A stretch of DNA of 64,000 nt from the NCBI RefSeq assembly GCF_057098645.1, contig NZ_CM169472.1; one strand, given 5' to 3'. The translations under genes and the position numbers were made by a program. Position 1 is the stretch's first letter. Every line of letters begins with the position of its first letter. The notes under the pieces are model-generated. The model was not told where the DNA came from, did no database searches, and saw only the letters and a list, made by a program, of their open reading frames with translations. Shown one piece after another: positions 36,108 to 37,000 of this stretch.

Positions 36108-36491
36108 ATGGCAACAAAAGAAGAAAATCAGAAACGTCTTCGTCAACTGGCTGGCCTGCTGGGGCGCGAGGCGGATATGTCGGGGAGTGCTGCGGATATT
36201 GCGCAACGTGTGTCTGAGTGGGAAGAGGAGCTTGCTGCTTCCCGGGAGGGCATTATGCCTGGTGATGAGAGCGGGCCTGAGCAAAATCACACAGACGATG
36301 GTGAGCAGTTGCACAACACTGATGCTACGGATGATGTTAAAGCGGTCCGTGTGCGGAAATGCCTGCATGTGATGGGGTATTGCCCGGAGACAGGCCGTCC
36401 CGTTGAACTGACGTACCGGGGCATGCGTGTTCTGGTGCCATCACCACTGGCGACAGCCATGATACAGCACGGAACGGCTGAGCATGCGTGA
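36108..36491 (+). CDS. FI: DNA-packaging protein FI-like, ~127 aa
   Basis: Track ORF 36060-36491 trimmed to MATKEENQKRLRQLAGLL...; acidic central region; lambda FI position. Confidence 0.65.
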   Translation: MATKEENQKRLRQLAGLLGREADMSGSAADIAQRVSEWEEELAASREGIMPGDESGPEQNHTDDGEQLHNTDATDDVKAVRVRKCLHVMGYCPETGRPVELTYRGMRVLVPSPLATAMIQHGTAEHA

Positions 36492-36933
36492 TTTTCAGAA
36501 TGCCTTTGATGCTGCCCTTGCCGGGGTGGACAGCACGATTGTTGAAGTGATGGGGCTCTGTGCGCAGTTCACCTCGGGGGCACAGTGTGGCAGCGAAGTT
36601 CAGGGGGTTTTTGACGATCAGCCGTTTGACCGGCAGATTGTTATTCCGGCGGTGGCATTCAGTGGCGCTAAGCATGAGAGAGAGCATACTGATATTTACT
36701 CCTCATGCCGTCTGATAGTGCGGAAAAACGGTGCTGAAATTTATAACCGTACCGCGCTGGATAATACGCTGATTTACAGTGGCGTTATTGATATGCCTGC
36801 CGGTCACGGTCACATGACGCTGGAGTTTTCGGTATCAGCATGGCTGGTGAATAACTGGTATCCCACAGCAAGTATCAGCGATTTGCTGGTTGTGGTGATG
36901 AAGAAAGCCACCGCAGGCATCAGTATCAGCTGA
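36484..36933 (+). CDS. FII-like head-tail connector N-terminus fused to unrelated C-terminal sequence (possibly the 3' end of J), 149 aa
   Basis: N-terminal MRDFQNAFDAALAGVDSTIVEVMGLCAQFTSGAQCGSEVQGVFDD resembles lambda FII; the ORF is longer than FII (117 aa) and is followed directly by lom. Confidence 0.55.
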   Translation: MRDFQNAFDAALAGVDSTIVEVMGLCAQFTSGAQCGSEVQGVFDDQPFDRQIVIPAVAFSGAKHEREHTDIYSSCRLIVRKNGAEIYNRTALDNTLIYSGVIDMPAGHGHMTLEFSVSAWLVNNWYPTASISDLLVVVMKKATAGISIS

Positions 36934-37000
36934 ATTTTATAACCCATATACGGGCGCCAGAAATGGCGCCTTTTTTATTGCAGAAAAGCGAGAGGTAATT

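Follow-up and report, generated by a model that had tools for sequence, protein, structure and literature searches.

A lambda-like prophage in the 64,000-nucleotide stretch of DNA analysed here (the window; contig NZ_CM169472.1 of RefSeq assembly GCF_057098645.1), from an Escherichia coli chromosome of the O145:H28 type, raises the question of how a single open reading frame (ORF) of 149 amino acids came to fill the interval between FI and lom, which in an intact sister prophage holds a complete block of tail genes. The initial annotation placed this ORF after FI, with lom beginning 67 bp beyond its stop codon, and our coordinates agree (36484-36933 for the ORF; lom starts at 37001). On the basis of sequence comparisons, it appears highly probable (roughly 95%) that the ORF marks the scar of a single intramolecular FII-J deletion in a lambda-like prophage at ybhC/ybhB-bioA. 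An event of this kind is ordinary prophage decay, which is already known, and does not constitute a new system.

The sister prophage resides in Escherichia coli strain OkiPb01716 (NZ_AP042701.1; hereafter L005) at the same ybhC/ybhB-bio site. Its head proteins are 97-100% identical to those encoded in the window, and the two have the lom-stf-tfa module and the espJ-side cargo in common. Unlike the window, L005 carries a full FII-Z-U-V-G-T-H-M-L-K-I-J block (11.1 kb) between FI and lom, along with nleH and cif. Relatives of L005 are also found in E2348/69, and the same complete FII-to-J block is found in L003, an O121 prophage whose FI and E proteins are identical. Given the full block in L005, the possibility that intact homologous phages simply have the gene order of the window falls away.

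Late genes and an in-frame FII-J chimera

The late region around the ORF contains the following features, given by position in the window.

28903..36056, + strand: Nu1, A, W, B, C, D and E, full length and colinear with lambda (tblastn single HSPs; RefSeq annotation of sister loci)
36108..36491, + strand: FI (DNA-packaging protein, gpFI), intact (tblastn; sister-locus annotation)
36484-36933, + strand: chimeric ORF FII'::'J, 149 aa, with FII codons 1 to ~46 joined in frame to the last ~103 J codons
36484..36611, + strand: unambiguous FII-derived segment, 100% identical to intact FII of other prophages
36605..36619, + strand: deletion junction; both parental genes contain this 15-nt block, GGGTTT(T/A)TGACGATC, with 14/15 identity
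36620..36933, + strand: unambiguous J-derived segment, the 3' end of the tail-tip/host-specificity gene J, stop included
36952..36980, + strand: native J-lom intergenic hairpin and T-run, terminator-like, kept (same sequence after intact J in L003)
37001..37600, + strand: lom (Ail/Lom outer-membrane beta-barrel), intact (199/199 aa covered, 98% identity)
37665..39150, + strand: side tail fibre gene (collagen-like repeats) and a downstream tail-fibre C-terminal-domain gene (ORFs, tblastn, annotation)

When the late proteins of L005 are searched against the 64-kb window by tblastn, Nu1, A, W, B, C, D, E, FI, Lom and Stf each yield a full-length single match, with 100% query coverage and 97-100% identity for Nu1 to E. 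These matches bear out the earlier description of W, B, C, D, E and FI as present and colinear with lambda. Z, U, V, G, T, H, M, L, K and I have no match anywhere in the window, whereas FII is matched over residues 1-45 only and J over residues 1051-1158 only. The tail genes from Z to J, already reported as absent, are indeed missing, save for this C-terminal remnant of J. The 67-bp spacer between the ORF and lom contains the GC-rich hairpin followed by its T-run. Downstream, the stf ORF (37659-38879) encodes 406 aa as against 437 aa in sister prophages (91.5% identity), and the length gap sits in the collagen-like Gly-X-Y repeats, making it a repeat-length polymorphism.

The ATG of the 149-aa ORF overlaps the FI stop codon exactly as the native FII start does. 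Residues 1-45 are identical to FII of the sister prophage at all 45 positions and to lambda FII at 25 of 45 (56%, E 7e-14), confirming the FII-like character that had been assigned to the first ~45 residues. The remainder had been described as unrelated sequence, a view that must be abandoned: it is J itself. Specifically, residues 42-149 match residues 1051-1158 of the sister J protein, the extreme C-terminus of its 1158 residues, at 107 of 108 positions (99%), and lambda J residues 1018-1131 with 39% identity (E 2e-21). A lack of J similarity in the C-terminal half, which would have argued against a fusion of this kind, is thus excluded by the 99% identity to the C-terminus of sister J. A tblastn search of 50,697 phage records likewise finds many Stx phages in which the end of the 'host specificity protein' J is 98% identical to residues 42-149.

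Protein family and structure searches divide the ORF at the same place. In PHROGs, residues 1-45 match head closure Hc1 and residues 41-149 match the last ~108 positions of the tail-fibre (J) family. Among PDB entries, the chimera matches gpJ (8iyk, 8xcj, 9wca) and gpFII (1k0h, residues 1-46) and nothing else. Full TipJ proteins are ~1,130-1,160 aa long and comprise a hub, FNIII, a fibre and a C-terminal receptor-binding domain. The NCBIfam profile lambda_TipJ (NF049904) gives 136 bits with the chimera, against a cut-off of 1950 bits, and aligns only at profile positions 1045-1163 of 1163. The chimera is consequently neither a gpFII head-tail joining protein (head closure Hc1), being FII-like at residues 1-45 only, nor a lambda TipJ, since it matches just J 1051-1158 of 1158. 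A PADLOC search returns no defence family for it at E <= 0.001. Judged by these alignments, the 149-aa ORF is an in-frame chimera of the start of FII and the end of J.

The lambda virion structure indicates what such a protein would retain. gpFII is composed of an N-terminal helix (residues 4-24), a beta-sandwich (25-41 and 63-107) and a C-terminal loop, and its beta-hairpin 46-62 inserts into the gpU ring (PMC10721106). The FII part of the chimera is predicted to consist of the helix and the first beta-sandwich strands, without hairpin 46-62 and the rest of the fold. Because the gpU-contacting hairpin and the remaining fold are missing, the chimera should be incapable of forming a gpU-binding stopper. 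The J part would supply ~103 residues of the receptor-binding end, without the hub, FNIII, helical shaft and fibre domains. A C-terminal Ig-like receptor-binding domain of J is described in PMC11101478, and the chimera appears to hold its distal part only; no exact start for the domain was found in the main text of that paper.

The chimera is most likely a by-product without function. Its frame is open and it keeps the native FII start overlapping FI, so that expression, and even some activity, is conceivable. RefSeq labels it in several carrier genomes as 'phage tail tip protein, incomplete, missing N-terminus', a partial pseudogene, and in other carriers as 'tail tip domain-containing protein', with PGAP calling a real CDS in some genomes. 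Of the carrier genomes listed, just two annotate the FII share as well, as a 'head-tail joining protein' fragment at the junction. A label of FII'::'J fusion pseudogene would be preferable to 'tail tip domain-containing protein'.

Breakpoints and the lost tail block

Alignment of the window to L005 by blastn breaks into two segments at the ORF. Positions 25936-36619 of the window correspond to L005 8719-19402 (98.9% identity) and positions 36605-38506 to L005 30501-32403 (98.4%), leaving the segments with a 15-nt overlap in the window and a gap of 11,113 bp in L005. These alignments and their breakpoints support the earlier proposal of an internal deletion that fused the 5' end of FII to the 3' end of J. 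The accompanying size estimate was less accurate. The distance from FII to lom in lambda is 11.0 kb (FII ends at 7965 and lom starts at 18965) rather than ~15 kb, and the gap in the sister is the 11,113 bp given above.

In a three-way sequence comparison, the FII parent reads GTTCAGGGGGTTTTTGACGATC up to the breakpoint and CGGAGTCG beyond it, the J parent reads ACCGTCAGGGTTTATGACGATC followed by AGCCGTTT, and the window reads GTTCAGGGGGTTTTTGACGATCAGCCGTTT. At the single mismatched base of the 15-nt block the window carries the FII-type T, which places the crossover within the exact 8-bp TGACGATC (36612-36619). The window has one copy of the repeat, and L005 has one at each breakpoint (19388-19402 and 30501-30515), a pattern that classically marks short-homology illegitimate recombination. 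Moreover, the reading frame through the repeat is the same in the two genes (G-V-F-D-D in FII and R-V-Y-D-D in J), and it is this common frame (V-F/Y-D-D) that keeps the 149-aa product open.

We infer that the ancestor was similar to the intact L005, and that recombination between the short direct repeats GGGTTTTTGACGATC (FII) and GGGTTTATGACGATC (J) would have taken out 11.1 kb of DNA. That DNA would have contained two-thirds of FII (its 3' part), the entire genes Z, U, V, G, T, H, M, L, K and I, and J as far as codon ~1,055. Among 6,374 seeded direct-repeat pairs in the FI-lom interval of L005, the junction pair ties at ranks 6-21 (that is, among the best ~12-21), and several other pairs in this interval score equally well or better. 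The junction pair is one of the better short homologies on offer, not a unique one, and its score would not by itself account for its choice. The exchange itself may have occurred by RecA-independent slippage or end joining, or by a Red- or RecA-assisted route, which the sequence does not tell apart.

With FII truncated, Z to I lost and J truncated, the prophage should be unable to build tails or to complete heads alone. The gene content accordingly leads to the same expectation as had been voiced before, namely that no tails would be made, and the junction explains why this prophage would not produce virions unaided.

Carriers of the junction and alternative origins

The junction region is present at 99.5-100% identity in 25 of 5,426 complete E. 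coli genomes. Twenty of the carriers bear the label O145, O145:H28 or O145:NM, and five lack a serotype label. An identical junction 36-mer, GTTCAGGGGGTTTTTGACGATCAGCCGTTTGACCGG, is also found in one IMG/VR contig. The carriers have the element at the lambda attachment site, flanked by ybhC and ybhB-bioA. The same defective prophage, with a junction 99.5-100% identical, is present in O145:H28 strains RM13514, RM13516, RM12581, RM12761, RM9872 and others. The scar is a clean lineage marker for this att-lambda prophage and matters little beyond such bookkeeping. The O145:H28 genome papers PMC3893438 and PMC7067040 do not mention ybhC, tail genes, the junction or the defect of this prophage in their main texts.

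Carriers differ from one another outside the junction, in IS content and in early-region rearrangements, and, unlike the window, retain nleH and cif. RM13514 has an inverted early region and a frameshifted terminase gene. C325 has the same right-hand IS junction as the window (in the 9576-11265 region) and has also lost 2027-9575. No finished RefSeq E. coli genome covers window positions 20000-44000 fully, the best being C325 at 81%. Because the IS-linked rearrangements vary among carriers and the FII-J junction is common to all of them, the tail deletion probably predates those rearrangements.

These data also bear on other routes to the same junction. Recombination between two prophages, or with an incoming phage, could have drawn FII from one and J from another, and EHEC genomes do hold many near-identical J 3' ends and FI/FII copies; indeed, inter-prophage recombination in the O145:H28 lineage is documented in PMC7067040. 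Nevertheless, the two sides of the junction are similarly close to one and the same sister (98.9% versus 98.4%), which is colinear with the window from ren to ybhB, and the host flanks ybhC and ybhB-bio are intact. We consider recombination of this kind very unlikely. An assembly artefact is excluded by the identical junction in 25 independently finished genomes and an IMG/VR contig. A natural variant of the lambdoid mosaic, having a short gene between FI and lom and no deletion in its history, is scarcely credible. Lambdoid phages are highly mosaic, and a 71-aa PHROGs family (phrog_6232) corresponding to the last 71 J residues shows that small ORFs from the J end are annotated in some phage records. 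However, each half of the ORF aligns at 99-100% identity within full-length FII or J of a sister prophage that occupies the same site, the junction occurs only in 25 closely related genomes, and not one of the 50,697 phage records covers at least 80% of 36060-37660 in one place.

A separate possibility is that the arrangement serves a function. A head-only prophage might be mobilised with the FII and tails of co-resident lambdoid prophages, in a form of accidental tail-stealing, or the chimera might itself be active. If expressed from the late operon, its FII helix could dock on gpW-capped heads and poison the tail joining or head completion of related phages; alternatively, its J fragment could mask the receptor. 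Consistent with such proposals, the packaging and head genes are all full length and the chimera is in frame with the native translational start of FII. Potential helpers may also be at hand, in that 9-12 places in each O145 genome match a 661-bp junction query (a count that short J-end matches may inflate), and O145:H28 lambdoid prophages have much sequence in common according to PMC7067040. In EHEC, prophages defective in head or tail formation have been shown to undergo packaging and transfer with the aid of co-resident prophages (PMC2669165). Several findings speak against a function, however. The cro-cII-O' region is lost as well, and ~5 kb of nested IS DNA separates Q from the lysis and head genes. 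The terminase frameshift and early inversion in RM13514 resemble progressive decay more than a maintained design. In addition, the scar cuts two genes mid-domain, PADLOC assigns no defence family, and no independent lineage with the same architecture is found among the 5,426 complete E. coli genomes. We regard a functional role in any of these forms as very improbable, and favour a deletion scar in a decaying prophage.

The deletion scar can be compared with known elements that lack tail genes. Capsid-forming PICIs are small, dedicated tail-stealing satellites that carry head and packaging genes without tail genes, and have their own regulation, replication and connector genes. The window instead presents a full-size lambda-type prophage with a fresh FII-J scar and an intact sister. 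Its closest relative has the tail block, its FII connector is truncated and so is its O gene, which sets it apart from cf-PICI-like elements.

The K-12 prophage Rac is a closer analogue, since a truncated tail gene also abuts lom-stf-tfa there (ynaA-lomR-stfR-tfaR) and the lom/side-fibre end is kept; in contrast to the window, Rac has lost its head genes too and has different breakpoints. YnaA of Rac (L008 4455-5483) was considered as a C-terminal fragment of J, but BLASTP reveals no J similarity and identifies it as an N-terminal tape-measure fragment (41% identity over 69 aa to sister H). Rac is an independent tail-block deletion. Among the defective lambdoid prophages of O157:H7 Sakai, deletions or IS insertions affect morphogenesis, replication or regulation genes while virulence cargo is kept (Asadulghani et al. 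2009, PMC2669165). These elements resemble the window in their lambda-type gene order and in the kind of lesion. They are nonetheless different prophages with different lesions, and for them packaging and transfer by complementation were demonstrated experimentally.

Further lesions and retained cargo

The window carries a multiply defective lambdoid prophage. Lambda-type int and xis lie at 626-1892 next to ybhC, and the right end adjoins ybhB-bioA. Genes Z to I, cro and cII are absent and FII, J and O are truncated, as compared with a full tail block in L005. The left arm comprises lambda-type int, xis, exo, bet, gam, N and a cI-like S24 repressor gene (8810-9442, minus strand). An IS3-family element (9576-10885) abuts the 5'-truncated O (10909-11265), and P is kept. 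The cro-to-O deletion recorded in the initial annotation is thereby verified, as is the retention of lom, stf, the lysis cassette (holin, lysozyme and Rz), int/xis and the Red genes. By its gene content, the prophage alone would most likely produce no tails and no completed heads, and would not replicate from its own origin. It appears to be a decaying, anchored element that still carries the conversion cargo lom, an lpxR-like gene and espJ. The FII-J scar is, in this respect, a textbook short-homology deletion in prophage decay, with lom, the lpxR-like gene and espJ as the surviving conversion genes (plus nleH and cif in sister strains).

The lpxR-like lipid A deacylase gene (15112-16071, minus strand) is flanked by the nin region and Q. 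Sister prophages carry a 100% identical copy, and the gene is a conserved moron of this prophage family. The espJ gene is retained at 41225-41875 (minus strand). Between lom-stf and espJ, an IS2 element (39258-40589) occupies the place of ~3.7 kb that carries nleH, cif and an nleG-like gene in C325, OkiPb01716 and RM13514, and a hypothetical gene downstream of IS2 begins at residue 23.

A three-level IS nest occupies 20729-25863, between a nanS-p-like esterase gene and the holin gene, and puts ~5 kb of foreign sequence into the late operon, separating Q from the lysis/head genes. At 21380 the outer IS3-family element is interrupted by another IS3-family copy, which is IS629-like (21380-25338) and is itself interrupted at 22197-24834 by an IS21-family element (IstA 23067-24713 and IstB 22295-23293, minus strand). 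The adjacent SASA/NanS-p-type esterase gene (18707-20556) matches the 616-aa sister protein in two pieces that lie in different frames, aa 1-231 and aa 201-616. These pieces are 89.6% and 99.3% identical, respectively, which suggests a frameshift or a recombinant 5' part.

Several ORFs in the early region match families of unknown function. A 293-aa ORF (6855-7736, minus strand) immediately downstream of N in the leftward early operon belongs to PHROG 12139, has no NCBIfam or PADLOC match, and matches the C-terminus of Nun-like transcription termination factors with its last 20 residues (phrog_5632, E 7e-5). ORFs at 2342-2944, 6298-6666 and 8409-8885 (200, 122 and 158 aa) match only PHROG 1416, 646 and 2651, respectively. 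The 158-aa ORF overlaps the end of the repressor gene region, at the position of lambda rex.
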